Shown piece by piece: positions 8,101 through 57,700 of a stretch of 64,000 nucleotides of DNA; the first letter of the stretch is position 1, and each line of letters opens with the position of its first letter. The stretch is from contig OZ296658.1 of NCBI GenBank assembly GCA_965655095.1, positions 11,904,001 through 11,968,000 of the forward strand, written 5' to 3'. The DNA comes from Haplodiscus bocki (taxonomy: Eukaryota). The position numbers were made by a program, and so were the translations under genes. The notes below the pieces were generated by a model that saw only the letters and a list, made by a program, of their open reading frames with translations, did no database searches and was not told where the DNA came from.

Positions 8101-9703
8101 AAAATCACCACGCCCTTTGAGAACAGTTACAAAAAAGTATACCAAGCATGCTTTCAAACTCACCACCGCGTCGGAACTAAAAACTACGTACTCAGACCCC
8201 GTCTCCAACAGTTTGAAAGCTTCTGGTGGTTGGAAACTCCAGTGTAGATTCTCAGTCAGGAATCGAAGGCGTTCGAGTATAATGTTTCCCAGCATCGACC
8301 CAGGCAACAAACTGTTTTTTTTCTTCTTGTTGTATTGATTGGCACTGGAAGCAAGCATCTTTGGACAAGTTTGAAAGGAGCCTTTTTGTCTACTATTGGT
8401 CCTAACTATCAATCAAATCACATCACCGCACAAACATCACCCGGAGTTATTTTCTTGTCTAACCTTGGCAACAGTTTAGGAGTGGTATTGCCTAACAATC
8501 AGACTTGAAATGAAAGGCTTTGTATTACCATGGCAAAAAATATGATGTCCCCTGACCAAAGAACTTAATGGATCTGCTGCTCAAGAACTGCTCGAAATAC
8601 TGGAGGGATAAAGTAATCCCAAAACCGCATTTAGTTCAGTTGCGAAGACTAATTTGCGTAAGCAGTTTCGGGGCGGAAGAAGTGGAACTTTCCGAAAGCT
8701 CTGCACCGGCAGAACTTCGTCACGTGGTGTTATTTGCTAGCAACGTACCAAAAACTGTACTGTTCCCGGGTATGAGCATTCCTCTGCCAATCTCTCTCGT
8801 CCAGTTGTCCACCACAACCTCTTCTAAAGCGTTTGAGCCGAGGAAGGTATCAATTTTACCCGGGGTTTTTTGTTTTTTTCAAGAAGATGCAGTTGATTGA
8901 AATTATTTAGTCGGTAAAGGTCTTTTTCCTCGTTGGTAAAGTGTTTTTTTCCGCTAGTATGTAGAGAATATTTTCAAAGAACCCTTTCTGGTCATTCAAA
9001 ATTATGCCGGTTGTCGTTCCCGTTTCATAAGCACGAACTACTGAAATGGGTGTTTTCACTTTGACAGTTGGCAGCATTAATGCTCAGCTTTTGACTCTGT
9101 TATTAAACTGGCTTTCGAGGCAGAATAAAACAGAGCCCGAAATTGAACATTGCTTCACAATCTGTCTCAAAAAAAACGTGAGCAGTTCCAAACAGAATAA
9201 TGCTACAAATTGTGACTGACAGACACACGTAACTAGTTTCATCTAGGTCAACAGTTTCAAAAAAACTGTTGACAACCTGGGATTGAGTAAATTCTTATAC
9301 ATAAAGACAGGTTAACAGCAAATCGATTCATCTTTACTAGGTTGAACTGAGACGGCTTATCTTGAAGTTGTAAGGTACGATGATTTAATTTTCACACTCA
9401 CTACACATGGATTTGGTTATGCAACAGCTTTTGTGTCGGCCGAGTAGCAGGTAATCAAAGCACACTTGGTTCCAAACCGCGATTTCCTTTCTGTCAGATA
9501 TCGATATGATTCTAAATATATGGAAGTGTGCAAATTATGTGTCTTGTTGAACATTTCGCGGCAAACACTCAAATGACAGAAATTCGGCATTTTTGTTCAA
9601 GCTTCGTTGCTATACTTGAGCTTGTTGTTGTTTAGGAACTCTGCTTGCAATAGGCGAGATCCAATGCCACAGCTTTCCTTTCGAAGAAACTTCAAAGGGT
9701 TTC

Positions 9704-10774
9704 TGTCGCAGTATATCCGCGAAGCCTACGAGCATACAGAAATATAACGTGTTCCATAATAACGTGGAACGGGCTAGGAAAAAGCCTAGTTTCGTTCCGA
9801 AAATGGATTAAATCGATGCAATAGTATTACCAAGCATGTAATTATGATTTTCTTTGATTATTTTAGTGTATTTTATTTAATTTTGGTGCATTTCTCAATA
9901 CTTTCCTCTTATGAAAAATCTCTTTGATCATTTGTTTATGTTATTATTTAATGTGTAGGCGCGGGAATAAGCACTTTGATATCCATTTCTGACTGAACAG
10001 ACCCGTATATTTTCCGGGGAAAGATGGAAAAGACGCCGCCTGTAAAGGAAGAAATGGAGGGAAAGTTGTTTATTTCCCGCCAGAGTCGGCATATTTCCTT
10101 TGTAATTATTATGATTAAAGTACTTTTCCGTACTTTGTACCTTTACGTGGCGTGTAAACAATTATGTTTCCCGCCAAGGAGAAGGTATAAATAGGAGAAA
10201 CGAAAGTACTAAGGGGAGATCCATAATGTCACTTTCATTATCAGTTGACTGTACAGATTGCGACTAGTTGTTTATTTTAAAGAATAACATTTTTGTTATA
10301 ATCTCAAGTTGATTAACAAATACAAAATAATTCAGTTTTCATAACTGCGTAGCATTTTCCCTTCAAAAAGATGGCAACTTTGAGAAACAAAACGAAAGTT
10401 GGCAGCCGTTACAAGAGAAACACAAGAGGAAAATCCTAGGAACGGCCAGTCACGAAACACGTCCGTTCCTAGAATTAATGAGGAATATATCGCACAAGTT
10501 TCTGAGGAAATTGAAGGCAGAGTCAGTAAAAAACTGTCCCAGGAGTTCAGCAGGACAGAGTCCCGCATTTTGGGTGCTCTGACTAAATTAGACAATTTTC
10601 TCTCGAACCAACAGATTCGGACGCATTCCGAAACCGTTCCGGGAACATTCCGGAACACAAACGTGGAAAACCAGGGAACGAATGAGGACGACTCCCAGAG
10701 TGATCCTCATCCTGAAGCAGGCATCTTTGGCGACCAGACTACACAAAACTCTGGCCCAAAAGATTGTCGTGACA
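9704..10774 (+). repeat. 5' LTR (internal deletion relative to the 3' LTR)
   Basis: 9704-9742 matches 16494-16532 and 9757-10774 matches 17021-18039. TG...CA termini. TATAAATA at 10186-10193. Confidence 0.92.
10186..10193 (+). promoter_or_regulatory. Putative LTR TATA box
   Basis: TATAAATA about 180 bp upstream of the gag ATG (10371), present in both LTRs. Confidence 0.55.
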
Positions 10775-10929
10775 TGGTGACAGGAGTTACAGGAGAAATT
10801 CGTCACTGTCGTGACATGGTGACAAAAGTTCAAGGAGAGATTCGGTATCGCCCCGACATGGTGACAGGAGGTTCATTAGAGATGCGCAATGGCCTTGACA
10901 TAGTGACAGCAGTTCAAGAAAAGAATTCC
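10762..10929 (+). repeat. Four tandem 42-bp units, each containing LTR-end GACA plus a PBS-like TGGTGACA
   Basis: GACA|TGGTGACA junctions at 10771, 10813, 10855 and 10897 (the last reads TAGTGACA). They encode 14-aa repeats xxDMVTxxxxExRx. Confidence 0.85.
10775..10787 (+). promoter_or_regulatory. Primer-binding site
   Basis: TGGTGACAGGAGT immediately follows the 5' LTR CA end. TGG is complementary to the tRNA CCA. The tRNA identity is not established. Confidence 0.7.
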
Positions 10930-13900
10930 CATACTGCTCCTCTGGAATTTCCTCAGCAAAACAAAAGAAGTCGCGCTCCACAAGTCAGCCACAATTTCGC
11001 AGTGAGAACACCCCTGCGACATTTGAAGCAGACCAGATTTTGTTGGCCCTTCAGCAATTGGGGACGAACAGTAATTCTGTCAATGCCAATAACACTAGTA
11101 ACAGAATCTCGAAACTGCCTAAGTCCCTCACGACAACAATGCCCTTCTGTGACGGGAAATCAGGGAAGTTTGAACTGTTTGAAGATCTATTCCAAACGAG
11201 TTTAAAAATCCACAATCAGCTCACAAAAGGAGACAAAGTAAACTATTTCCACTCTCTCATGCGTGGCGATGTGCTGCAGACGTTCAAAAACATCAGCAGC
11301 CGGAACGGAGAGAATCTGACAGAAATTCTGACTGTGTTCCGTAGGAAATACGTAAAACCCCAGTCAAGGGCTACGGCAAAACATAAATTTCAACAACTAG
11401 TGTTCAATCCAGTGAACCAGAAGTTAATTGATTTTTTGGACGAACTCCAGAAATTGGCAACAGATGCGTTCGGAGTTGCTGCCCAAGCAGTCATTGACCA
11501 ATTCATATATGCCAAGATGCCTCCGCACCTGAAAAAATCAAAAAACCAGGCCCACTTGGAGAACGGCACATATGAACAGATTGTGACACACCTTGAAAGA
11601 GAATTAGAGCTTAACAGTTTGGAATATCTTGATGAAACTCAGATGAACACTGTGACGCACAAACAACAAATTGAAGCCAAGCTAGATAATGCTGGAATTA
11701 TCAACAGTGACACAAACGACTCTAACCCCAACAATCACAAAATTGACAGAAAATCCAGAACTTTCTATCCTCCCTGTGAGACATGTCGCAAAACGAACCA
11801 CTCCACAGAGAGATGTTACGTTGGAGCCAATGCAGCAAACAGGCCACTTCCCTGGAAGAACAAACCTCAAGAACAGGATACACACGACAGTATAACTGGT
11901 TGTGTCCAGGCTACAGCCCAACATTATAACTAGAAATGTCACATTTTCACTCCGGAACAGTGACTTACAGACCGGAGACCAAAAGAAGAATATTCCACCA
12001 TTCCCATGTGTTGTCTGGCAGCAACTTCTGGAGATATTTGTGGATAGTTCAATTTAGCTAATATTCAAAATGACTCTACTGCTGAAACTAATGAAAACAC
12101 ACATACGCCCCAACTAAAACAGAGAAATGATGTAGATTGACAAACGCCGTCATTAAAGGAAACCTCAGTTCAAAATCCGGCACCGCTACGGAACAGTTCC
12201 GAGAAAATGAAACTAGTAGCAAACAAGTACTGTGCCTCCATAACTCCCAGAACTTTCAAAACGAAACCCAAGAAACGGTTCACAGCATCACAGCTGAAAT
12301 GTAATGGAGATGACAATTTTTCCTCTCTCACAAAAACAACTTCAACGTTGTTTGGGAAACGCTTGTGAGAGATGAGGCATGAAAGAGCTCTATATGCCAG
12401 TGTCCTCCATCGTAATTCCTGAAAACTGTAGCTGCCTCTGGATTTCGTAAACTATCTAATTACACAACCCATTTGACCAGGTGTATACTAGGCACAATAC
12501 GAGAAGTTTGCCCACAGAGTCTCTGTAAAAGATCGGATATATGACGGAATGGATACGGACCATGTTTTCAGCTATAAACGGGGCACGAATTGGAAGCATC
12601 AAAACCCTAATTCTACCAAGCCCCGCAGAACTAAATATGATCTACGTCATCACCTGAGGCCGAACTGCAACGAAACTTACAAACATTGAATTTTTGAGTC
12701 TGATCTAGTATGTTCCACGGAACGCCTACGTACACTTTCCGGAAATCCTAGGAACGTGCTATGGAACTCATACGGAGCAAATACGTACCTATTCCTAGAA
12801 GCTCTTGACAGTTCTCCTGGAACAAATATGATCTTTTCACTACTAATTCTCAATGGATTTTGGTGATTGCAATAGTGAGTTTCTAAAATCATTTTCTGAG
12901 GATAATCCTTGTCGACTGACTCATTTCCCACTCATTCTCGCTCAGACTGGATTTCGACGATATTGTGTGCAACTAAAACAATACAGGCAATGAATTGATT
13001 GAATGAGAAAAACCTAGGAACACCCCCAGATAACCCCAGTTTGGGCGACACTAACGACATTACTGCTTCCACCCAGGGAAAAAACACGGAGTGATACGGA
13101 ACAGTTGCGGAAAGTCTACGGAACGTACCACAAAAGTGTCGCAGCTGAACCAGTATTTCATTCAAATCTGCCAACATAAAATATACATTAGACACACAGT
13201 ACTGATTGCGCAAATATAAATCCAACGGGAATGCCCACTTTTCATTAGAGAATTCAGCAACTGAGCCTTTTCCACCTCGCTGACGGAGCGACACAAACAA
13301 ACAATCTGATGCCCAATGGCATGCACAACAATGGCAGCAGGAGTCAGTGACGAATGAATCTAAAAGGCAAAAATGAGGTGAAATCAGGAAACAGTGAGGA
13401 ACAATACCGGTAAATTCCTCATTTGAACATGAATATTACCATCATCAAAAGCCTGCTCCATTAGCTCCAAACTTCGACTACGACTGTGGACAACTTCAGA
13501 GACGTCAGATTGAAGCCCGCAAATAGCGATACCAGGCGTCTGACTATCAGTCTCCACCCCAGTCGATACGTCATCTTTTCCTGATTCTAGGAGCAAATTC
13601 GGCATCACCTGCAAAAACGAGGATAACAAACCACAGCCCCAAAAGCAAATCCACAATGTAGATTCGAGAGAATGCTACTCTCAAGAGCAGCCGTGAGAGA
13701 TCTTTATCTAGAGCCCCCTTTCCGGACATCCCCCTCCGAAGTGGGAGCAACAACTTCAAACTCGGATCACAACCGAGTCAATCCGAGAGGTCCGGAGATA
13801 TCCGGACGAACAAATTGTTCCCAGAACAATTATACACTAAAACACAATGGCCTCACGAAGTCATCTTCATGAAGAGGTGCGCACTGAATACTAGCTTATG

Positions 13901-14745
13901 GAAAATATGAGCGGCCGCCATATTATTCCAGCAAACCAAAAGCTAATGGGTAATGAAGATTTGAGAATTCACATTGCGGAGGTCGAGCGTTGTCAAAAAC
14001 ACACTTAGACAAAATCTGTCCCTCCAGTCCTTTTCCCGGAAAATCTCTGAGAAAATGAAACACTGCAACTCAAACCCGGAGATCGTCAACGCGGGAGCAC
14101 CAAGAACAACAACGACACCCTCACCTTCGATGTCTGCTTATTCCCCGCATCTTCATCAGTTTCGCCATGGTCTCCAACAACAAGGTTTTCCAGAACTACA
14201 CCCGGATTCCCGGACTCTCCTCGCCCATAACGACAAGAATTTTTCTTCAGGGGCACATGGAGGTTGATAGAAATAGCAAAATGAGTTCTGGCAGAACCTA
14301 CAAGTGACACAGCATCTGCTTGAGAAGAAGTGATCTCCTCATGCAGGATCACACTTCTCTCAGACATTCCATGGAATAGCAGCACTTGACTATCAATTGA
14401 TGGATTTACATGCCTAAATCATTAAATACTTACTCATTATAATTTTGATCAATTTGTCTGCCAGCAATGACATCAGCTTGATATTTCAAGGAAACGTTGA
14501 GGAACGAAACTGAACGTTTCTTCATTCCAAAACTTTGCTTTCCTTGACTTGTGTACACAGTAACACCCTCAAATTCTACTCACTAATACTTAACTTCATC
14601 AATTTTACCATTTACTACGGAAACTACGAAGAAATTCCCAGCTGAAGAGAAAACTACGGAGAAATTACGTGTGAAGACTGGCCCGCGACAAACATCCTAC
14701 GCTGCCTCCCATAATATCGACCACTGTTTCCTGTTTGACCCAAAT

Positions 14746-16475
14746 GAAGTTGAGGCACAGTTAGAAAACCAGCTAGGGGCAACGGCGTGGGGACCCACTG
14801 CTGCACAATCAAATTTAACCGGAGTGCTACAAGCGAACACTAATGAGCAACTTCACATGTTGGCAGAGAGGAAAATTCAAGGCAAGAGAATACTCAGCGA
14901 GCAGTCAGTTCTTCCGAGAGAGTTGAGATCAATGGCTGACATTGACACTGCATGTAAAATTGTTGTTCGGAACATGAATGCCAAAAAAGAGTTTGTGAGT
15001 TCGTCGAAAATTGAATTGGCTCTCCTTCAATATTATGGAAAGAGACAACTTAGAGATTTTGGAATTGGCAATGTACGAGCTGCTCATCAAATTGAGACAT
15101 TGAAGAATCTTAACATGAGAGAAAGGAAAGTAGTTCTCTACTTTGAAATTTTCATTAAAGTGCAAAGCGTTTGTACGATACACGAAGTTGAACACCTTCT
15201 GATCAAACTTCAAGTGCCTGACAATGACACTTCTGGGAATATAAATAACAACAACAGTTCGTCTTTTGAAGACTTGTATCAACTTGGACCCCTGTACAGA
15301 CACCTTGTAATATATGACCACTTCAAGTTCCACACGGACGGGTCTGGGCAACCGCGGGAAATCAGTTCATATCATGTGGCTGATATCTTCCGCGAATAAT
15401 TGACCAAGAAGAATCTCTGGCAGAGTCGGGAATTGCAAACTGCTGACATTCTCACATTCTTAGCAGAGACCTTAGACGTTGAAAACCCGTGGAATCTTGG
15501 AGTTAAAATTGTGTCTCTTCCTTTGCTCAAAAGTACCATTTGCAGGGCGCAAGCTGATAGCAAGAAGGAACAAGACAAGTTGATTTTCCAAATTGTAAAT
15601 TCTTTGGTCGAAGATATGCGCGAGGAATCAGACTACCTACGTCAACAAATCGGTAAAACAGTGGGCATTGGCTCGAGCGGAAACCAAAAACATATTAACT
15701 ACATCAAAAGCATGTCAACAACGGAGCTTTTGAAGCACTGCTACAAAGCGTGTCAACCCTTGCTGCAACATGTTGACACCCATACTGCGAATGACTCTAA
15801 ACTGAACGAAAGGAAAAAGGAGAATAATTTCTCGGAAGTTTGTCGCGGTTTCAAATTTCTTTGAAACCTGTCAGAAGCAGCCAGTTGCTCGAGCGATATT
15901 TGAATTGTGCATTCTTAGTAGCTGCAAAATTGGCAACCCAGCGCTTATAAAAGAAGCCATTGGTTTTGTGCTGGACAACCAAAAGTTATGGGAAGATATC
16001 GTACAATTCTGTCCGACTGAGTGTTTACCCCGGAATATGAGCAGTGCTGCAAGCGGGAAACCAGAGGTGTTTGATTTGACGTCGGATTCGTCATTAGAAG
16101 GCGAGTCTGGATTGCCATACAAACAATTGGGGGAAGACAGGGAAAGAAATTTCTTATCTGAGATAGAAGAAAAAGTCGATGAATTGTTGAAACAAGCATT
16201 GCACAGCAGCTCTAATTTTTCCCTCCAAATTTCTATGAATGAACTGGAAGCCATGGAACAGAGCTCATACAAATTTGATTCAGAGAATCTTTTATGGAAC
16301 AGGCATATGATGTCTTTTCTTGGGTTGATCGTATCGAGACCTCTGCTTTTGAGTCAATTCACTTCTGTAATTGGTGGAAGAATATCCAATGACAACGCGG
16401 ATGGAAATTTCCTGAAGTATTCTTCAAGTGCTGAATATGTTAGAAGAGTTTCCCAGTCTGACCATGGGAATGTCC
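14746..16475 (+). pseudogene. Captured intronless fragment of a NO VEIN-like protein (N-terminal region)
   Basis: ERKVVLYFEIFIKVQSVCTIHEVEHLL...FEDLYQLGPLYRHLVIYDHF...FRE*LTKKNLW...FLAETLDVENPWNLGVKIVSL resembles the NO VEIN N-terminal motifs as I recall them (EGKINAFIHCF...LYDLE...FEELGLGPLLRHPLV...LGVRIQNL). One in-frame TAA at 15397-15399 and one frameshift at ~15860. Boundaries are approximate. Confidence 0.72.
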
Positions 16476-16481
16476 TTTCAC

Positions 16482-16493
16482 AAAGAGTGGGAG
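16482..16493 (+). promoter_or_regulatory. Polypurine tract
   Basis: AAAGAGTGGGAG directly abuts the TG start of the 3' LTR. Confidence 0.8.
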
Positions 16494-18039
16494 TGTCGCA
16501 GTATATCCGCGAAGCCTACGAGCATACAGAAAGAAAAGGACATCCCCAAAATGTCTGAAAATTAAAAGAAACTGTATCAATACTTTAGACGTTTCCATTT
16601 CCATTCTTATAATAATATTGCAGTAATATATCATTGCTTTTACATGTAGTTGATACGTATCAAATACGTATCACTCCCCAGTATATTTTCATACAAATTC
16701 TACGTATTTTATACGTAGAACTCCCGTGTACTGAACCAGACTGCGACGGAACTTTTACGTAACGAACACGTACCAACCTAGCAGCTACTCTAAGCTAGGA
16801 ATGAATATTTTGTTACGTGCGCGTTACGTCGCTACCGATCTGGTGACGTCACGAAATTTTCAACCAATACGATTTGCTTTTATGATGTGTCAATTTGGAC
16901 GAACACGGAACTCTACGTGGCCACCAGATTCATTCTCCTCAGTGGCGCTGCGGAGAGCAGTGCTACAAGCGGCCACGTAGCCGTTCCGGAAAACTTTCTC
17001 CAAAATGACGAACCATCCGTTAATAACGTGGAACGGGCTAGGAAAAAGCCTAGTTTCGTTCCGAAAATGGATTAAATCGATGCAATAGTATTACCAAGCA
17101 TGTAATTATGATTTTCTTTGATTATTTTAGTGTATTTTATTTAACTTTGGTGCATTTTTCAAAACTTTCCTCTTATGGAAAATCTTTTTGATCATTTGTT
17201 TATGTTATTATTTAATGTGTCGGCGCTGGAATAAGCACTTTGATATCCATTTCTGACTGATCAGACCCGTATATTTTCCGGGGAAAGACGGAAAAGACGC
17301 CGTCTGTAAACGAAGAAATGGAGGGAAAGTTGTTTATTTCCCGCCAGAATCGGCATATTTCCTTTGTAAGTATTATGATTAAAGTACTTTTCCCTACTTT
17401 GTACCTTTACTTGGTGTTTTAAACAAATATGTTTCCCGCCAAGGAGAAGGTATAAATAGGAGAAACGAAAGTACTAAGGGGAGATCCATAATGTCACTTT
17501 CATTATCAGTTGACTGTACAGATTGCGACTAGTTGTTTATTTTAAAGAATAACATTTTTGTTATAATCTCAAGTTGATTAACAAATACAAAATAATTCAG
17601 TTTTCATAACTGCGTAGCATTTTCCCTTCAAAAAGATGGCAACTTTGAGAAACAAAACGAAAGTTGGCAGCCGTTACAAGAGAAACACAAGAGGAAAATC
17701 CTAGGAACGGCCAGTCACGAAACACGTCCGTTCCTAGAATTAATGAGGAATATATCGCACAAGTTTCTGAGGAAATTGAAGGCAGAGTCAGTAAAAAACT
17801 GTCCCAGGAGTTCAGCAGGACAGAGTCCCGCATTTTGGGTGCTCTGACTAAATTAGACAATTTTCTCTCGAACCAACAGATACGGACGCATTCCGAAACC
17901 GTTCCGGGAACATTCCGGAACACAAACGTGGAAAACCAGGGAACGAATGAGGACGACTCCCAGAGTGATCCTCATCCTGAAGCAGGCATCTTTGGCGACC
18001 AGACTACACAAAACTCTGGCCCAAAAGATTGTCGTGACA
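16494..18039 (+). repeat. 3' LTR (1546 bp), including a copy of the gag 5' end
   Basis: TGTCGCA...CGTGACA followed by the TSD. ORF 17664-18056 repeats the gag N-terminus and runs out into the flank. Confidence 0.92.
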
Positions 18040-20275
18040 GTTTCCTTTTGGAGTAACTATTTTCCTGGTATGACCAGTTGCCATTGTTTTGTAGATTCAC
18101 GGTCAAGCTTCTCTAATTCTTTTAAAAGTCGGTTATTGAACTCTTGCAAGCTTCATTGCGTTACTTGTGGAATTGGTAGAAAGACTAAAAAAATGCATCT
18201 TTTCTGTTGCTTGCGCCCGTCTGTAGGTTTTGATAAAAGACTCGGCACGTGCTGCTAATATTTTTTTGCTTTTTCGTGAAAATCAGAAAATTTTCAGAGT
18301 CAGTTGTTTGGCCTTTTTCCAGCTCATTTAAGAGCTTAAGTTCAGTGTCGTAGCCTTGGACAAGGTTCCACTAGGTTTTCGTTGGGGACAACAGTGTTTC
18401 ACAGAGTTGATCCCGATTTGATATCGTGAGATTGAATGCCCCGTCAATTTTTGGTTCTGCTTTGGTGAATGCACTTTTGTGCCCACCACGATTAAGAAAT
18501 GAACTTTCTATGTCTTGTGTGGCATTAGTGTTGACAACAGTCCTTGATTTTCAATGTTCCCTTTGATTGGATGTTCTGCCTTTTTTTCCTAAAGACAATA
18601 AAGACAAAATTGTGGAAAAATAGAAAGTGAAGTAAACACAAACTTTTTAACTTGACAACAAGCGAGTGGAGAAACACCGAAGAAGTCAGTGAGAAACAGA
18701 GAACCAACCTTCGAGATTGAAGAGGGAACAGGGAAATATGAAAGCTCAAAAAAGAGAAAAATTCTCATTTGAGGACAATCAGTCAGAAAGGCAACGAAGA
18801 AGCCACTAAGTGAGAAAAAGACAAACCTTTGGCGTTAGGAACGTACGCTAATAATTTTCTGGATCCATGTTCAGTTTTTTTGGGACAAGTTTTTCCTGGA
18901 CTTCGAACTTTTCTTCGAAAGTAATCTCGCGATGTCTTTTCCGTGATCCGAACCGGTTTGCTGGAGATGTAGATTGATTCACTCGGAACGATGCACTTTC
19001 TAGAATTTCTCGCTGATTTCCCTGATTTTTCTTTCTGCTCAAGACCAGATGTTTTCTGTCAAAAGGCGTCAACGAACTTCCACTGACTACAATCTTCTAA
19101 ATGTTAAAAGTTCCACTGCACTGCAGTTACAAGATTCTAAGGATTTGTTTCCGAAACCGTTTCAATGTCATGGTTACTGTTTCGAGTGAGGAAATGCAGT
19201 TGCTTTAACTTTTAAAGCAGTTAAGGAGTTGTTTAAGAGATCGTGCCACATGAATCATGATTGTTTCTTTTTCATTTTCTGAGGTTTGTCTTCAGCAAAA
19301 CGTCAAGGTTTTAGAAGTGTTAATGGCAGGAGGATGAGAACAAAGTTCTGAGACAGCAAAGACTTGTCTTTGGAAATGTCTTCTGAAGGAGCATGGAGCT
19401 ACTTCAAAAGGCTGTTTGAAGTCGCTTTCTCAAATTTTGTTGATCATACAAAGACTTCTGATTTTTGTGGCAGACGCAAAACTACAAGCAACCACGTGTT
19501 ACATCAGAAAGTAGTAACGAAAAAAAGTTTTTCAGTCAACAGATGGGCAATCAAGTTCAAAAAAGCTGCGCTTTCAAGTTTTTCGGGTCCCCGACGGACA
19601 AAAATTGCCGTAGCAGTTGAATATAGTTCCTCACTATGTTACGGCTGACGACGTAGACATTTCATGGCATAAATTACAGAAGAACGAAGTGTATGTTACA
19701 TTGTTAATTAGAAGTATTTAGATCAAGCAAATTGAAATTTAGCGGCAGTCTTCGACAACTGAAAAGCTTCAAACTACGGCAAAGAAAAAAGACCAAAGAC
19801 GGACGTATTGCAATTATATTGGTCAAACTGACGTGTCAGAAGAATGCCGGAACAGCTCGAACTTTGAATGATTATATTGCAGCACGAAATACAAAATTCA
19901 GAACAGTTACTTGTCGGCTCGAAATTTCCTATTCTTTCTGCACTTGTTGAAATGGTAATATTTGCAAATATTTTACACATTATAGAATTTGAAAGATTTA
20001 ACTAATGAAATTTCCTATTTCCAGGAAACATGACAGTCAAGCCGCACTAACAGTTATGTCTATGGAGACGATTGTGAAGCAATTCATAAATATTAACTAA
20101 TCCTGAACGAGACAGTAAAAATTGAAAATTGGCTCAATACAAATACAAGGCGGCTTCCTAACTCCGAGGAATTGTATGCCACTCAAATTATCTTGAAAAA
20201 ACGTTGAAAAAACTAAGCTTTTTTCGTTTTAAAACTTTTTTTCCAAAATTCTACCGGAGTTTTTTTCGAATAAAC

Positions 20276-23550: not shown

Positions 23551-26279
23551 CAAAAAAGCACATCACGATCACTAGTCGGGTATCGCCGATGTCAGCATGA
23601 TCAAACAGCCAAATGAAATACTTCAGTCAGCATTACTTGGAACTTTTCTTGGTGAAGCGAGTTTTATAAATTCTTTGCGCCTTCACAATGACAATTCTTA
23701 TTGTTAAGTGTTTTCCGAAAACCTCTCGAAAAGCTATCGAAAGGTTGTTCTGGTGTTGCCTGATTCAAACTGTGCCGTTGATGATGGAGAATAGTACAAT
23801 TCAGTTCCTTTGTTCATTGGCCAGAAACAAGGAAACTGTCGGGTATGAGCGTGCAATGAAAGCATCAAAACTAACCGGGAAGGATTTTTCGAAATCTCGG
23901 ATGAAGTCACTGACTTAGAAGTCCATGAATGTAGCTAACTGACTAAATGGTTTTTGTCCTTTGTGAACGAGCCCTCTTTGGTTATCATCGAGACTAGAAC
24001 TAGAAAAGGAGAGAAAGCATGATCTTTTTGATGATCCATTTGTTGAGATCCGTTTTTAGTCAGAGCTTTTACTGAAGGTAAAAAAGCTCACTCTTTTAGT
24101 CACTTTGTTTTTTTAAGACTACAACGAATTGTCTACTTTTCCCCAATTTTTGCCCTGGCACATTATTTTATAGCAGCCAACAACAGTCTATAGCAAGCAT
24201 AGGCAACTACTCAAAAACCCTTCTACCATTTTTCCGGTAATTTGAGATCAACATTTTCGTCGAAAAATTTTGATACCCTTATGCAAAAAATTTTTCTGTA
24301 CCAGAATTTTTCATAAAGACCAAAAAAGCCAGCCTGGCGATTTTTTTTCGTTACTGTAAGACAAAATGATTTTGACATCTTTCTCGTAATACCTACCCCC
24401 TTTATGGTTTATCGAAAATTTGGCGACCGACAGATGGGCAGCGCCGACATTGAGTTTGTTATGGCTACGATAGACTTTCCCTGGAAGTTGAGCTGACGCT
24501 CAGCTATTTTCAGTCGCTTCTGATTGACGTACAATGGCATTTCTTTCGCAATTACGAAGAGGTAATACACTTCTATCCATTTGGAGTCAAAGATACAAGT
24601 TGGTCCTTATTCGAGAGTTTCCCTTCCTATCTTCCTATCTTCCTATCGGAAGTCTGCTCTACAATTACGGCTGATCAGCGGGAACTCTAAGACAATAGCG
24701 GCGTTATCAGTGGAATTGGCGACGATTCCCAAAAATATGGGCTGCTCCACTAAAAGTTTGGTAGCTTACCATAAAAAAACTTTACAAACGCCAAATATTG
24801 GTGACTTGGTAGTGAAAAAGTTTTAATAGGTTATGTTTACAGAACTATGATCTTTTGCCTTGTACAATTAAATTTGAATTTTAATCATTAAAACATATAT
24901 GCGGATACAATTGACAGAAAAAAAGAAAGTAATGAATTCAAAAAGTAAACGTAATTGTGGCAAATTTTGTGCAGTTTTGAGTTTTCCATGCCAAAGTATT
25001 CGAGGAAGGAATTAACCAGTGACTCTCAAAATTTTTGATGACATCTCAATTTTCAACTTGATATATTTGGTATATCTGGCCAAAATTAACTTGATGGGTC
25101 AATTCGTACAGACGATAGCTCGGGACCATATTATACCAATACCCTGAAACGTCCGGAGATGCAGCTTGCTTTAGACTACTTTTGTCAGCTGCCAAGTGCT
25201 CCAAATATTTTCATGATCACAAGTTACCTCCATGCTATATTTTAGCATATTGAAAAATGAGGCACATCCTTAAACCTTTTGGGTCTTGAGAACTTTTCTA
25301 TGACCTTTCACATATCAAAGCCAAATTACTGTCTTTGGAATTGTTTGGTCGAAAGTTTCGGTGCAGACTCTTCTCTTTATATTTTATGAAACTCTAGACG
25401 AGCTTATGAATCATTTCGGTCACGAGGAATAATAATGTTGCAATTGTGTCAAAATGAAGCACACAGTTGACCAAATTGAACGACAACATAATCAAACAAA
25501 AACTACCAAAGGACAATTAATTAATTCCCTCAATGAAAATAGCTTCAAGTTAGTGCCCATTGGGCCCACTAGTTGTTTAATCGGAAGCTTATATGTCAAT
25601 GTTTTTTCAAAAAAACGAACAAGCATACGGAGTGTTATTTTTTATATGCTCGCAATGCAAATGAGCAATCAAAAATGGATATCCCCGGTTGAACCGAAAC
25701 GAATCTGTGTCAAAACAGACTCGCGGGCTCTAAAAACAAGTTGCGAAAAGAGCTGAAACTGATTTAGTACGATTTTGTCTCAAAACTTATGGGTTGGTCA
25801 AACGTGATGTTACGTACTATTCCGTTTTTCCTTGCCAAATTGCAAACGCTTCAGATCTAACTGTGGTGTAGATATAAGTCAAAAGAATAATGTAGGTAGG
25901 TTAGTCTTAGTCTATGCCATTTTCTGTCGGCACCGTTAGTACAAAAAAGGCCCAACTACAAACTGCTCAAAGCGTCCAGGCCCCCAAAATTTTCAGGGTA
26001 CTCGTTCATTTCAGAAAAAGGATTACTGGCAAAGAATAAGAAAACAGCGTATTGAGGAACTAAAAAATTGTTGGAGATTATTTTACGATAACCCCGATGC
26101 GTGTACTAAAAAGAGTACTTCAAACACTCATGCCAGGATTGCTTGAACTAACAACTTTCTCAGAGAGAGATTATCTTAGCTAGAAAATGAAATCAAAATC
26201 ATCCAGGGTTGAGGCTGATACGCCGAATATCATTCCATGAACTTAACAGCGAGCAACTAAATTCAAATGTACATCAACC

Positions 26280-28210
26280 AGAGCTATCTTAGATATTTTC
26301 AACAAACCCTAAATCTTCCAAAACTTTCACATTTGGCACAAAGTGTATTATTCAATTTTACAAAATTTTTCTACTTTGGTTGACTTGGCATCCGCTCAAA
26401 TTAATCTGATAAGTAACCTAACCTCTGAAAAAGATACGGGAGAGAGAAAGTCGGATCTTAAAATTCTGAATTGCCAAGGCATTTGATCAAAAGAACTGAA
26501 AATTCAATCCGTCTTCAAGTTACACCGAGTTTCAAAGCAAACAAAAAATTTGAGGAGAACGAAACTGCAACGAACGCAAACTGATCATTTGTTCTCCCAT
26601 TTTTATTATGACAGGTGTCCAACAGGTTTGGTCTATTGTAAAACATGTGTCCGACAAGTTTGATTTAACATAAGACACCTTTCACATAAATTGGCATCGA
26701 TGCCATGACGAAACTGAAAAGTTTTTTGGTTGTTTTTTTATGATTTTGACAAATTTAATGAACTTTCCCCACAAGTGTTGAAATTTTAATCGGACAAATG
26801 TGTGTCAACACAGATGGGTGATCTAAAAGAACTTCAGTTTTGGTATGCGAAGGACCGCTGAAAACGGCACGGGAAAGATAGAGCAGTCCAGGATTAGCCA
26901 GAAAACTTTCGAATTTTTGAAAACCGTGAACTAATGGGATGCTTTCGAATAGCCGGCCGGACTAATAAATTGATTTTTTTCATTGAGTTTCTTAGGGAAT
27001 ACAGCCAGTTGAAAACTGTGAACTTGACCGGTCAGTCTGGGGAAGTGCTTCAATGTTTGATGCTGTGCTGCATTTTTGAGTTGAAGCAATTCTGGAGGTT
27101 CATATTATTCCTCTGTCTAATTTTTGCTTATTTTGATTGAAAGACCTTTGGTTTTCTTCTGAACTAACTTAAATCAATCGTATTGGGTTGTAATTTGATT
27201 TGAACGTGAGATTGAAACAGAAGTGAAAGTAGGACTTATTTGCATTCTGGTTTAGATTTGCCATTCGCACTTAGTATTACTCTTACGGATGATTTCGGAG
27301 AACAAAATGGCTTTTTGCACATCGGAGTTTTTCTGGCTCAAACTTCTTCATCGCGTTGCAGCATTTTTCAATTGGAGGGTACTACTGTTTCCTAAGGGTC
27401 TTCGAATACAAAATTTTGCTAACCCTGGATGTTGTCTCTTCTAAATTAATGTTTTGGGTCAATTAGATAAATAGCTGGGTTGAAATTGGTGTTCCTGGAT
27501 GATTCAATTCCAAATACTCAAAGCAAACTAGTTTGCCTTTAACTACCACGAGTTTTTTGGTCAGTTTCCTTTAATGATTCTTTTAATGACGTTTTGGCTT
27601 ATTAACATGTGCACCGCTGCAGAGCATTATCAAGTCATCACATAGTGTGTGTCAGTGACAACAACCCGATTGCATAATAGTTTGTTCCCATCGAACTCAT
27701 TGAACTGCTTAGGAGTATTGAAATAAACACATTCTACTCCGGACGGGTAGAAACTCAATAAAAGCCTGCTTAGGTCTTCCTCCACCAAAATATAATTGAA
27801 TGCTGTCAACCCAAAGTCGGTTAGGTACCAACGTAGCATCTCCAGGTTGGAAGCAAATTAGACAATTCATTGTCTGCAGTACTGGCTAATGCATGCTTGT
27901 GAACCGGACGTTTCCTCCTATTCACTAAACACACGAAGTGATTTCGCTCGTAAAAATGTCATGAAATCTTCAACATTTTTTGAAGCTTTCACGTGAGTGT
28001 GTACATGTCAAAGCTATGGACCGACTATGCTCGCTTTCTTTTTTGTTTGAAGAGAAAATTTGGAGCTCCCTATACTTCAGGGCTCTATGCTTTGTTCCTA
28101 CCCAACAGGATTTGTGAGTATCCCAAAAACCTTTCGGGTCGGTAACCCTGCACCCGATGATCTGAACCCCTAATCGGTTGATAGGTGTGAACTTTAAATT
28201 CTCATACAAC
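26280..28210 (-). repeat. Copy A of an unidentified element segment with an unknown ORF relic
   Basis: 26280-26720 aligns by eye with 31660-32020, and 27690-28200 aligns with 33090-33620. Conserved peptides include CRVTDPK and EMLRWYLTxxGLTxF...YPSGVE. Confidence 0.65.
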
Positions 28211-30990: not shown

Positions 30991-31659
30991 AAAACGCTGC
31001 ATGTGAAATGTTTGGATTTTCAAATTAACGGATATTTATGAAAAATGTTAGAATTTTCTCTAAAGTAGTCGTATCTCACCTGCCAATCACCTGTGTTGAC
31101 ACGCCTATTACAAATCAAAGAGTGAGAGAAAATTTTAGATTCGGATCAGGAAAGCTGTAGACTTAGTTGACCGACATTATGCAATGTTTTAGAGACACAT
31201 CACCATCTCTCATAAATGACAAATGAGATAGCAACTTTTTGAACCGTTTTTACAGTTTGCTAACAAATAACAGCTACTTTGAGAACCCGAAACTTTTTAA
31301 GCGTACAATTTTAACCTTTTGGTGGTTCATCATGTATGTCATTTTAATAACTTAAATGAATTAAGTTCTGAATAATTCTCAAATTTCAGGGTGAAGAACA
31401 TCAGATTTTTTTAGTAAGTCTTGAAATCTGGAATTAGCATGATTTTGCCGGGATTTGGCAAACACGGTGGTATTATGAAAACTTCATGTTCGACTAATGA
31501 AGATTGTAAGATTGTTATCTTAAAAAGGAAACTCACCAAAATTTCGCGAAACGGCAACAAGGCTCGAATTAAATTTTCTAATAACGTCTAAATTCGGAAA
31601 GACCATAAATTAGCCGCCAAGCAATTAAAGTCAAACTGATTTCAACCAAAATCAAACGT

Positions 31660-32343
31660 TATGTATTCAACAAACCTCATATCGCCTAGAACTTTCAATT
31701 TTGGCACAGAGTATATTATTCAACCTAACAAAATTTTTAGTTGGGTAGATTTCGAATCCGCTCAAAACATCTTTATGAAGTAACTAACCTCTGGAGAAAA
31801 ATCAAGTAAGCGAGAACTCCAAAACTTGCATTACTGAGTTACTTCAAGATGGTTCGAAAACAAAATGGAACAAAAGTCTCATGAAGACAAAAATAGGTAG
31901 AGTGACAACCAATCTTTCGGTTCCCCATAATTGGGGTGTCAGGTGTCCGCTGGATCCAACGTATCAGGGGACACTTGACAGATAAAAAAGGCATCGATGC
32001 TATTGCCATGATGAAAATGGGAACCACCCCGAATGGTTCCAAAAAGGTTATTTTTGGTAATCTAATGACAAGTGGAGATATTTTTCCCGACGAAAGTTGA
32101 AGTTTTTCTCCAAGACTCGTAAAACAGGTTCGATAACGGTTCTAAAAGAACGATCGGAGGTTTTTCGGACTAAAATCAGTCAGCTGACTTGCACTCAGAC
32201 AAAGACGACAACGAAGACGACAAAGGACGTGCCTTTGGGAACTTTGGGTAGTTCTTTTCTATTCTTCGAAATTATTCGCATCCCTAGTTACCCTGTCAAA
32301 TTTTTTCTGCAGAAAAACTTAAATCCAATTCTTCGTTCTCATA

Positions 32344-32386
<43 letters not shown>

Positions 32387-33630
32387 GTCCATTGGGGCAG
32401 CAGAGGGATTCCTCGACGACTCTGTGGTGCGAGTGTATGTAAGTTTGTAACCTTATCCCACTCAGAGTTTTCTCGTGTGCGCTTTCTAATTGATTTTTCG
32501 TGAAACACAATGGTTTCTTTTGGTTCTATTCCTGCTAAGCTTGTTTGCATTGGACTGAAACTGGAATTCAAAAGTTGAGCTAGATTTCCAACCGGAAGAG
32601 CAACCTCTTTTGCGATTAAGTAAACCAATTGCTTGGTTAAAAAAAGCAGAAGCTGAGAACTTTGCTGTGCGCGCCGCTCAGTAAAAACTGAGAATGTTAC
32701 AGAAACTAAAAGTCTCTATTGCGTTTTGCGCTAAAATCTGAAATTTTTCTCAAAAACACGGTTTTTCTTTGAACTCGCGGTTAATTCTACCTTTCATCGG
32801 CTAAAATTTAGACGTACGTGAATAAAACATTGCTGGTTTCAAGTACCCAACCAACGAAAAGTCGACTGTGAGTTAAATTTAGTTACCTAGTTTTCGTTGC
32901 TTTTCTGTCTGCCTTAATAAGTCGAACGGCAAGACGGGACTTTAATTTAGGCATCGCCGAAGTCCCACCCTATTGAGGATTTTTTAAAGTTTTTGTGTTT
33001 TGGCCCACTGGCAACTTGGTCGTAGCAAAAGAGCTACTGTAGTCATAACTTTATTCAACCCGTTTGCAAAGTGTTGATAATTACTGAAATTCTTCAGGTG
33101 TCTAAGAATAAGAAGAGGGATTTACTCTACCCCGGACGGGTATAAATTAAGGGAAAGCCCGTTTAAGTTCTGGTCTGCCAGAAGCTGTTTGAAATCCGTG
33201 AGCCCAGAGTTGGTAAGGTACCAACGTAGCATCTCCCTGCCGCGGATCAGGTAGACAATCCATGGTCTGCAGTACCCGCTAATGCATGGTTGTGAACTGG
33301 ACGTCTCGTTCTTATCCCTAAGGGTGCAGAGTGATTTCCATTGTACATCTTTTTTGGATAGTTTTTCGCAATAGTCACTAGAGCTAACTATTAAGTGGGT
33401 ATATCTGTTTATTTCAGCTAAGGACCAACTAGTCCCGCTATTCGGTCTTTCCGTAGAGTAACTCCAAAAATTGGTATACCTCGGAGTGCTCTGTTAAGTA
33501 ACCATTTTCCACCAACAGGGTTTTTGAGTATCCCAAAACTTTCGGGTTTGTAACCCTGCACCTAAGGACTATACCCCTCCTTTGCTGATAGGTGCCAATT
33601 TTACAAAGATTTTGGAAAAATTGAGACATC
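31660..33630 (-). repeat. Copy B of the unidentified element segment
   Basis: CRVTNPKVLGYS...ETSSSQPCISGYCRPWIVYLIRGREMLRWYLTNSGLTDF...YPSGVE is homologous to copy A. Confidence 0.65.
32350..32384. repeat. (TC)n microsatellite
   Basis: Directly visible. Confidence 0.95.
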
Positions 33631-57532: not shown

Positions 57533-57700
57533 TTTGCGGGTCAATCCCAAGATAGCTCCAATCTTTCCGCGGGTGAATCTTCAGTCTCTCTCAATCTTCT
57601 CGCAAGTAAACTTCTACAAGATTCACCTGCGGAAAAGCAGAAGGAGACTGGAGATTCACCCGCGAGAACATTGACGCAATATTAGGATTGACCCGCGAAA
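57533..57700. repeat. Long imperfect palindrome (foldback/MITE-like) built from CGCGGGTGAATC units
   Basis: The left arm GCGGGTCAATC...CGCGGGTGAATCTTCAGTCTC is mirrored by GAGACTGGAGATTCACCCGCG...GATTGACCCGCG. The plus and minus ORF translations are near-identical. Confidence 0.8.

Follow-up and report, generated by a model that had tools for sequence, protein, structure and literature searches.

A non-autonomous gypsy-type LTR retrotransposon in the genome of Haplodiscus bocki holds, in a slot ahead of its polypurine tract (PPT), an intron-free piece of a NO VEIN-like host gene, which was probably acquired by a switch of the reverse transcriptase (RT) onto a co-packaged host mRNA; a probability of about 0.88 is assigned to this reading. 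Across the family, at least eight different inserts occur in this slot, with one nested in another, and it is likely that the family picks up and swaps host mRNAs repeatedly while copying itself. The window that was analysed is a stretch of 64,000 nucleotides (assembly GCA_965655095.1, contig OZ296658.1, positions 11,904,001–11,968,000 of the forward strand). All positions below are those of the window unless another sequence is named, and all features of the element lie on the + strand.

The element occupies 9704–18039. Direct comparison of both flanks yields a 5-bp target site duplication (TSD), GTTTC, at 9699–9703 and 18040–18044, in agreement with an earlier note on this DNA. The note had also taken the LTRs to be intact. 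This holds for the TG...CA ends and for the 3' LTR of 1546 bp (16494–18039), but not for the 5' LTR (9704–10774), which is only 1071 bp long because of a 475-bp internal deletion placed near 9745. The alignable parts of the two LTRs diverge by 1.8%. Directly behind the LTR end, in the position of the primer site, lie three to four TGG-led 42-bp repeats (10771–10924), to which no tRNA was matched. Gag is present as two frame pieces (10384–11933; PF03732, E = 8e-4, and DUF1759), at 54–64% to the gag of a pol-bearing relative. Its frame begins within the 1.5-kb LTR and crosses the tandem primer-site-like repeats (9704–10924; the LTR is also found at 16494–18039). Pol is almost wholly missing, as had been stated. 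Its remnants (12303–12686) consist of a protease-like scrap (12303–12458, E = 0.002) and a C-terminal integrase tail (12594–12686), whereas the RT, the RNase H and the integrase core are absent from the window element in the comparison with the pol-bearing relative. The 3' backbone common to the family (12700–14668) then stops at the cargo slot, whose 5' edge is fixed. On the far side of the slot, the backbone resumes at 16459 and ends with the PPT (16482–16493), which adjoins the 3' LTR. DNA contigs of two sequencing runs, one study possibly being the source, cover 30 of 30 bins of the stretch with none spanning it, and were not counted as support; loose ends occur at 14670, beside the slot edge at 14668. 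Elsewhere in the window are found diverged direct repeats (26252–28196 and 31620–33603, 67–74%) and a 78-nt inverted repeat (57533–57699).

The interval 14746–16475 had been assigned to a NO VEIN-like gene fragment standing directly before the PPT. Both statements needed correction: the fragment itself, a captured piece of spliced mRNA of 1.64 kb, extends from 14794 to 16436, the first 48 nt of the interval belonging to an older cargo, and it is separated from the PPT by a 22-nt filler (16437–16458) and by the backbone starting at 16459. The gene assignment was borne out, with the identity reached via homologs of the large exon of the parent gene. A genome search recovered the segment undivided as well as divided into four exons, the latter at two places on C12. 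These two parents (47.995–48.023 Mb on the + strand and 47.755–47.833 Mb on the − strand) are both intact, and their four exons match 14794–16436 with 91–95% identity. The three introns, of 1185, 4397 and 641 bp and all GT-AG, are exactly removed in the cargo (3/3), at 15159/15160, 15534/15535 and 16154/16155; the joins were exact in 16, 13 and 15 copies scored at the three sites. Both parents have open frames across the captured region, and the dN/dS between them is 0.14. NO VEIN is duplicated in this genome: two full inverted copies (C12:47.75–48.03 Mb) evolve under purifying selection, and two others are 3' partial copies. The NOV_C loci at C12:48.85 Mb and on C74 were rejected as sources of the cargo, as only the 3' part was present in the stretches fetched.

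The fourth exon of the parent is a 1662-aa frame encoding a Sacsin domain (PF25794, E = 2.5e-12), the named relatives of which are NO VEIN proteins, and a NOV_C domain lies 13 kb beyond it. The parent is therefore predicted to be a NO VEIN-like gene with a conserved N-terminal region, a Sacsin-type ATPase and NOV_C, of which the cargo has about 550 codons, all from the N-terminal region and including neither ATPase nor nuclease. The cargo itself matches the N-terminal region of NO VEIN proteins: its first piece (201 aa) matched 38 of 117 named homologs at E ≤ 1e-3, with a best value of 7.6e-13 against 0.021 for the best of 20 shuffles, and 86 of 117 were matched when the in-frame stop was read as X. 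The third cargo ORF alone matched none of the 117, a Pfam search with the cargo ORFs alone gave no family at the cut-off, and a word-based homolog search of the cargo against longer proteins returned 0 of 4475 candidates. The single stop (15397–15399) and the single frameshift that had been described are present, the latter consisting of two single-base gaps against the parent near 15845–15855. The last ORF (15806–16558) does cross the PPT into the 3' LTR, yet this is a trait of the backbone rather than of the cargo, as the same frame into the LTR is open in a cargo-free copy and in the pol-bearing relative.

The earlier note had suggested looking for a parent gene whose introns are missing here, for microhomology at the junctions and for further copies with the same junctions and different TSDs. 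Beside the parents described above, a microhomology of 10 nt that the NO VEIN parent shares with the older cargo was found at the 5' join (14794–14803), as the sequence shared by the family runs to 14803 and the parent match starts at 14794; the chance of such an overlap is about 5e-6 per random pair of positions. The 22-nt filler at the 3' junction is partly similar to the continuation of the parent and is common to the NO VEIN-type and Dscam-type copies. The 5' junction was spanned by 23 of the 40 matches scored. Both outer ends could be located in 16 of the 26 NO VEIN-bearing loci fetched, one end being truncated or not located in the other 10, and they showed 15 perfect and one near-perfect 5-bp TSDs. 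The copies with a TSD occupy 15 distinct sites, which amounts to at least 15 independent insertions.

Intron loss and the 10-nt microhomology thus support the capture of an mRNA by template switching, as had been proposed, but with a switch onto an earlier cargo rather than pol. In the mechanism favoured here, host mRNA would be packaged together with the element RNA in virus-like particles, and the reverse transcriptase would switch onto it, replacing the contents of the slot. The NO VEIN cargo, like a Miro cargo presented below, entered by microhomology within an older cargo, in line with the template-switch model of Tan et al. (2016, PMC5131818). The defective chimera would then have been copied in trans by a pol-bearing relative. 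A relative with the gypsy domain order PR-RT-RH-IN is located at C12:48.818–48.833 Mb. It is 67–84% identical to the window element at the DNA level and is itself broken; no helper element was identified, this being the one pol-bearing relative examined. Since many TSD-flanked copies are devoid of pol, the family was presumably mobilised in trans by an autonomous pol-bearing partner.

The slot is not reserved for NO VEIN. Ten family members matching only up to 14803, and supposed to be empty, carried other inserts; cargo-free copies have only about 135 nt in the slot and continue past the edge at 14668 with a donor-like GT. Intron-bearing parents were found for four of the cargos. The first one, cargo (a), derives from a peptidase-C39-like gene and consists of 1.24 kb in eight exon pieces with permuted exons. 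Its stump, an exon piece, remains in the window at 14669–14803, and its parent lies with introns at C3:35.80–35.82 Mb. The gene, which came from an ESM Atlas lead, has shark homologs and 498 relatives at E ≤ 0.001, with no Pfam family at the cut-off. Cargo (b) is Miro: 23 of 24 PF08356 matches belong to this family. It is joined to cargo (a) by a 7-nt microhomology at its 5' join, and an intact Miro parent with introns was not found in the genome searches. The sole Miro EF-hand match outside the family is a degenerate non-LTR locus (L114, C3:21.19 Mb). Cargo (c) is NO VEIN, joined onto the stump of (a). Cargo (d) comprises about 925 nt of Dscam, Ig1–Ig3 from the ATG, in six exons with a parent on C10, and is joined onto the last ~90 nt of cargo (c). 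Its 308-aa frame is open in four of the five copies checked; one Dscam join uses a donor inside an exon, which shifts the frame. A 241-nt probe for the Dscam subfamily (loci L177, L178, L180, L181, L191–L194, L197, L228–L231, L233–L235, L239 and L241; window equivalent 14669–16347) gave 98–100% identity in 40 of the 40 matches scored, among 216 candidates. Cargo (e) comes from a gene at C11:87.92 Mb, with one intron removed, and ends on a Miro relic. Cargos (f–h) are three inserts of about 740, 1000 and 750 nt with no parent assigned (L200, L195, L196, L198, L199; L238; L240). Those of L238 and L240 end on a 95-nt piece that comes after Miro, and the ~740-nt insert contains a tRNA-like word, in which ARAGORN found no tRNA.

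The junction relics give an order of loading: (a) before (b) and (c), (c) before (d), and (b) before (e). The divergence between LTRs agrees loosely with this order, with medians of 0.046 for (a) (n = 5), 0.039 for (b) (n = 18), and 0.022 and 0.006 for the long (n = 6) and deleted (n = 16) forms of (c); for (d) and its derivatives, the LTR pairs differ at 2–11 of about 1270–1525 sites (n = 8, without a pair whose 3' LTR is disrupted). The youngest subfamily, which is also the largest, is the Dscam-bearing one, and it keeps only ~90 nt of NO VEIN. In a tree of the backbone (49 rows, leaving out one duplicate and the copies with less than 95% of the backbone probe), the peptidase type is separated with full support, the NO VEIN and Miro types are interleaved with five changes each, and the single cargo-free copy is not basal under midpoint rooting. 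The tree gives no clean order, so that the order rests on the junction relics. Miro also occurs behind a cargo-free 5' end, the two overlapping by 6 nt, and this join makes recombination between sister RNAs directly visible. The frequent reloading could be due to the slot being dispensable, to its location where minus-strand synthesis would enter the internal region, and to recombination between co-packaged sister RNAs.

Although NO VEIN and Miro entered inside older cargos, the Dscam and peptidase cargos start at the 5' edge of the slot, and for these two the edge may act as a splice donor of the element that joins host 3' splice sites, in trans or by read-through, with the RT making only the 3' join. 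This is given slightly less than even odds. The cargo-free slots start with GT in a donor-like word. In the single non-element match that a search returned, the start of the Dscam cargo coincides exactly with a canonical 3' splice site, a pyrimidine-rich AG acceptor (C10:34684625) located two bases ahead of the ATG; the idea of splicing had been set down before this result was obtained. In the peptidase cargo, the same backbone position is followed by sequence that lies, in the parent, behind a pyrimidine-rich CAG. The spliced-leader word of acoels (PMC9911081) has 1818 matches in the genome against 0 in the control, and mRNA-like sequence came next at all four loci read (L218–L221), which indicates that the host trans-splices. 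As no donor follows the word at these four loci, many of the 1818 dispersed matches could have arisen by the retrocopying of trans-spliced mRNAs. The absence of any sense-oriented family copy within 120 kb upstream of the Dscam exon disfavours read-through from a fixed copy. Against splicing, 3 of the 20 non-G edges read in cargo-free or other copies already have ATATG, so that a 5-nt microhomology explains the Dscam edge without it. A clean splice would have put the peptidase join one base away, at an acceptor that is itself cryptic, and no third cargo starts at the donor among the 20 edges read. The reading of the slot as an intron spliced to the PPT was rejected, as a donor joined directly to the PPT gave 0 matches. 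A subgenomic acceptor near 14560 was discarded because its AG is lost in Dscam-type copies, and the spliced-leader locus L219, which abuts an LTR start without a PPT, was not counted as a cargo. That the family uses its own donor in the manner of a spliced leader, trans-joined to host 3' splice sites, and that the slot is then reshuffled by the RT, is a tentative proposition and one rather doubted here. If it is true, the element is a splicing-fed gene-capture cassette that samples host transcripts into a fixed slot.

The permuted order of the peptidase cargo could mean that a circular RNA was copied. The 3' exons precede the 5' exons, both ends fall within one exon at a distance of 6 nt (L102, L109 and L136), no second copy of the gene was found within 50 kb, and LTR-associated pseudogenes of circular RNAs have been described in the part of PMC4897178 considered here. 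The scrambled join, however, lies inside exons, with no GT donor and an overlap of only 2 nt. It is not a canonical back-splice, which would join a splice donor to an upstream acceptor, and a canonical circular origin was rejected; a copied circle of any kind is judged improbable. A double switch of the RT on one linear mRNA cut by RNase H would explain the order better and is preferred. The RT would enter the linear mRNA, copy its 5' part, jump forward within that mRNA and reach the end of its template at the RNase H cut through which it had come in.

The NO VEIN piece could have been retained for a benefit to the element, either as a decoy protein or by giving rise to small RNAs against an antiviral host gene. 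Two 2026 preprints (bioRxiv 10.64898/2026.09.30.755639 and.754977), in the parts considered here, report NO VEIN to be homologous to the antiphage protein Tiamat and to have an antiviral role in plants. What was captured is the N-terminal region specific to eukaryotes, both NO VEIN joins are in frame, and new stops are somewhat rare (5 against 10.9 expected, P ~0.03, uncorrected), a deficit that departs from what pure neutrality predicts. The amino-acid changes are nevertheless neutral: among the private changes of 16 copies, 59 are synonymous against 68 expected under a context-matched neutral model, and the stops and frameshifts are each private to one copy. The truncated protein suggested in the earlier note is unsupported because of this neutral decay. 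The whole cargo is kept in five copies, nine have a common 1-kb deletion and others have lost more. The common deletion is not GT-AG, so splicing was rejected as the cause of the internal deletions; several of the others have short direct repeats. The youngest and largest subfamily keeps just ~90 nt, unrelated genes occupy the same slot, and no link between NO VEIN and transposons was found in the portions of the two preprints considered. Retention for such a benefit is accordingly held to be quite improbable, and a conserved protein role appears unlikely; the recent link of NO VEIN with antiviral defence makes it worth testing whether the cargo acts as a decoy or in silencing. The reading frame is kept at seven of nine junctions examined (~0.008, hand binomial at one third), which is weak evidence because codon periodicity favours in-frame microhomology. 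Together with the stop deficit, the in-frame junctions hint that premature stops may be selected against at the level of the RNA. Captured in frame and neutrally decayed since then, the NO VEIN piece is most likely a passenger.

That the segment is a LINE-made retrocopy which entered the element as DNA, or that it belongs to the family as a normal accessory gene, is scarcely credible and is refuted by replacement-type junctions with microhomology, at which backbone or older cargo is replaced and not interrupted, by the lack of a poly(A) or TSD of its own around the segment, and by its absence from most family members and from the pol-bearing relative, so that none of the grounds on which the earlier note would have withdrawn its proposal was found.

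Within one animal genome, this retrotransposon family offers a record of host-mRNA captures one after another, in which parents, junction relics and relative ages can all be read. The record allows tests of how 5' joins are made, by splicing or by a template switch, of whether the cargo affects the expansion of a subfamily and of whether the copies silence their parents. It is also a warning for annotation: dozens of loci in this genome that look like "paralogs" of Miro, Dscam and NO VEIN are transposon cargo.

In retroviral oncogene transduction, a defective genome carrying host mRNA is mobilised by a helper; in the model for it, the 5' join arises by read-through and splicing and the 3' join by a template switch. 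The family resembles this system in that a defective genome carries host mRNA, and probably in its mobilisation by a helper. It differs by having no env and no selected cargo function, and by the microhomology at the NO VEIN 5' join. With respect to the NO VEIN/Tiamat family, as far as it is covered in the parts of the two preprints considered, the C12 parent has the N-terminal region, the Sacsin-type ATPase and NOV_C, whereas the cargo is confined to the ~550 N-terminal codons. The pseudogenes derived from circular RNAs of Dong et al. (2016, PMC4897178), in the part considered here, have a non-colinear exon order and LTR flanks. The peptidase cargo shares both traits, but its join is not at splice sites.

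The closest relatives are the retrocopies mediated by LTR elements, a class of which the NO VEIN segment is clearly a member. According to the part of Tan et al. (2016, PMC5131818) considered here, LTR elements of animals capture partial spliced mRNAs that replace internal sequence, the joins showing microsimilarity or a short filler made de novo, and they form chimeras of two to four genes that undergo further non-autonomous rounds. The removal of introns, the replacement of sequence, the microhomology and filler, and the further transposition are all found here. Maize Bs1, as treated in the parts of PMC5131818 and PMC7264820 considered, is a non-autonomous LTR element with pieces of several unlinked host genes; it is one chimera of three genes, whereas here subfamilies with different cargos coexist. 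These two sources, to the extent considered, thus already document LTR elements that capture pieces of spliced mRNA, form chimeras of several genes and transpose further. Among the entries that a literature search listed, none concerned a serially reloaded slot or capture by trans-splicing, although the supplements of PMC5131818 may hold similar cases. In the portions of the sources considered, the retrocopies of PMC5131818 are mostly single events at one or few sites, and transduced ORFs occur in one or few copies (PMC7264820). Here, one fixed slot has been reloaded with at least eight nested inserts, several of them at tens of copies, one permuted and two starting from one donor-like site, and such a serially reloaded slot in a single amplifying family appears to be new.
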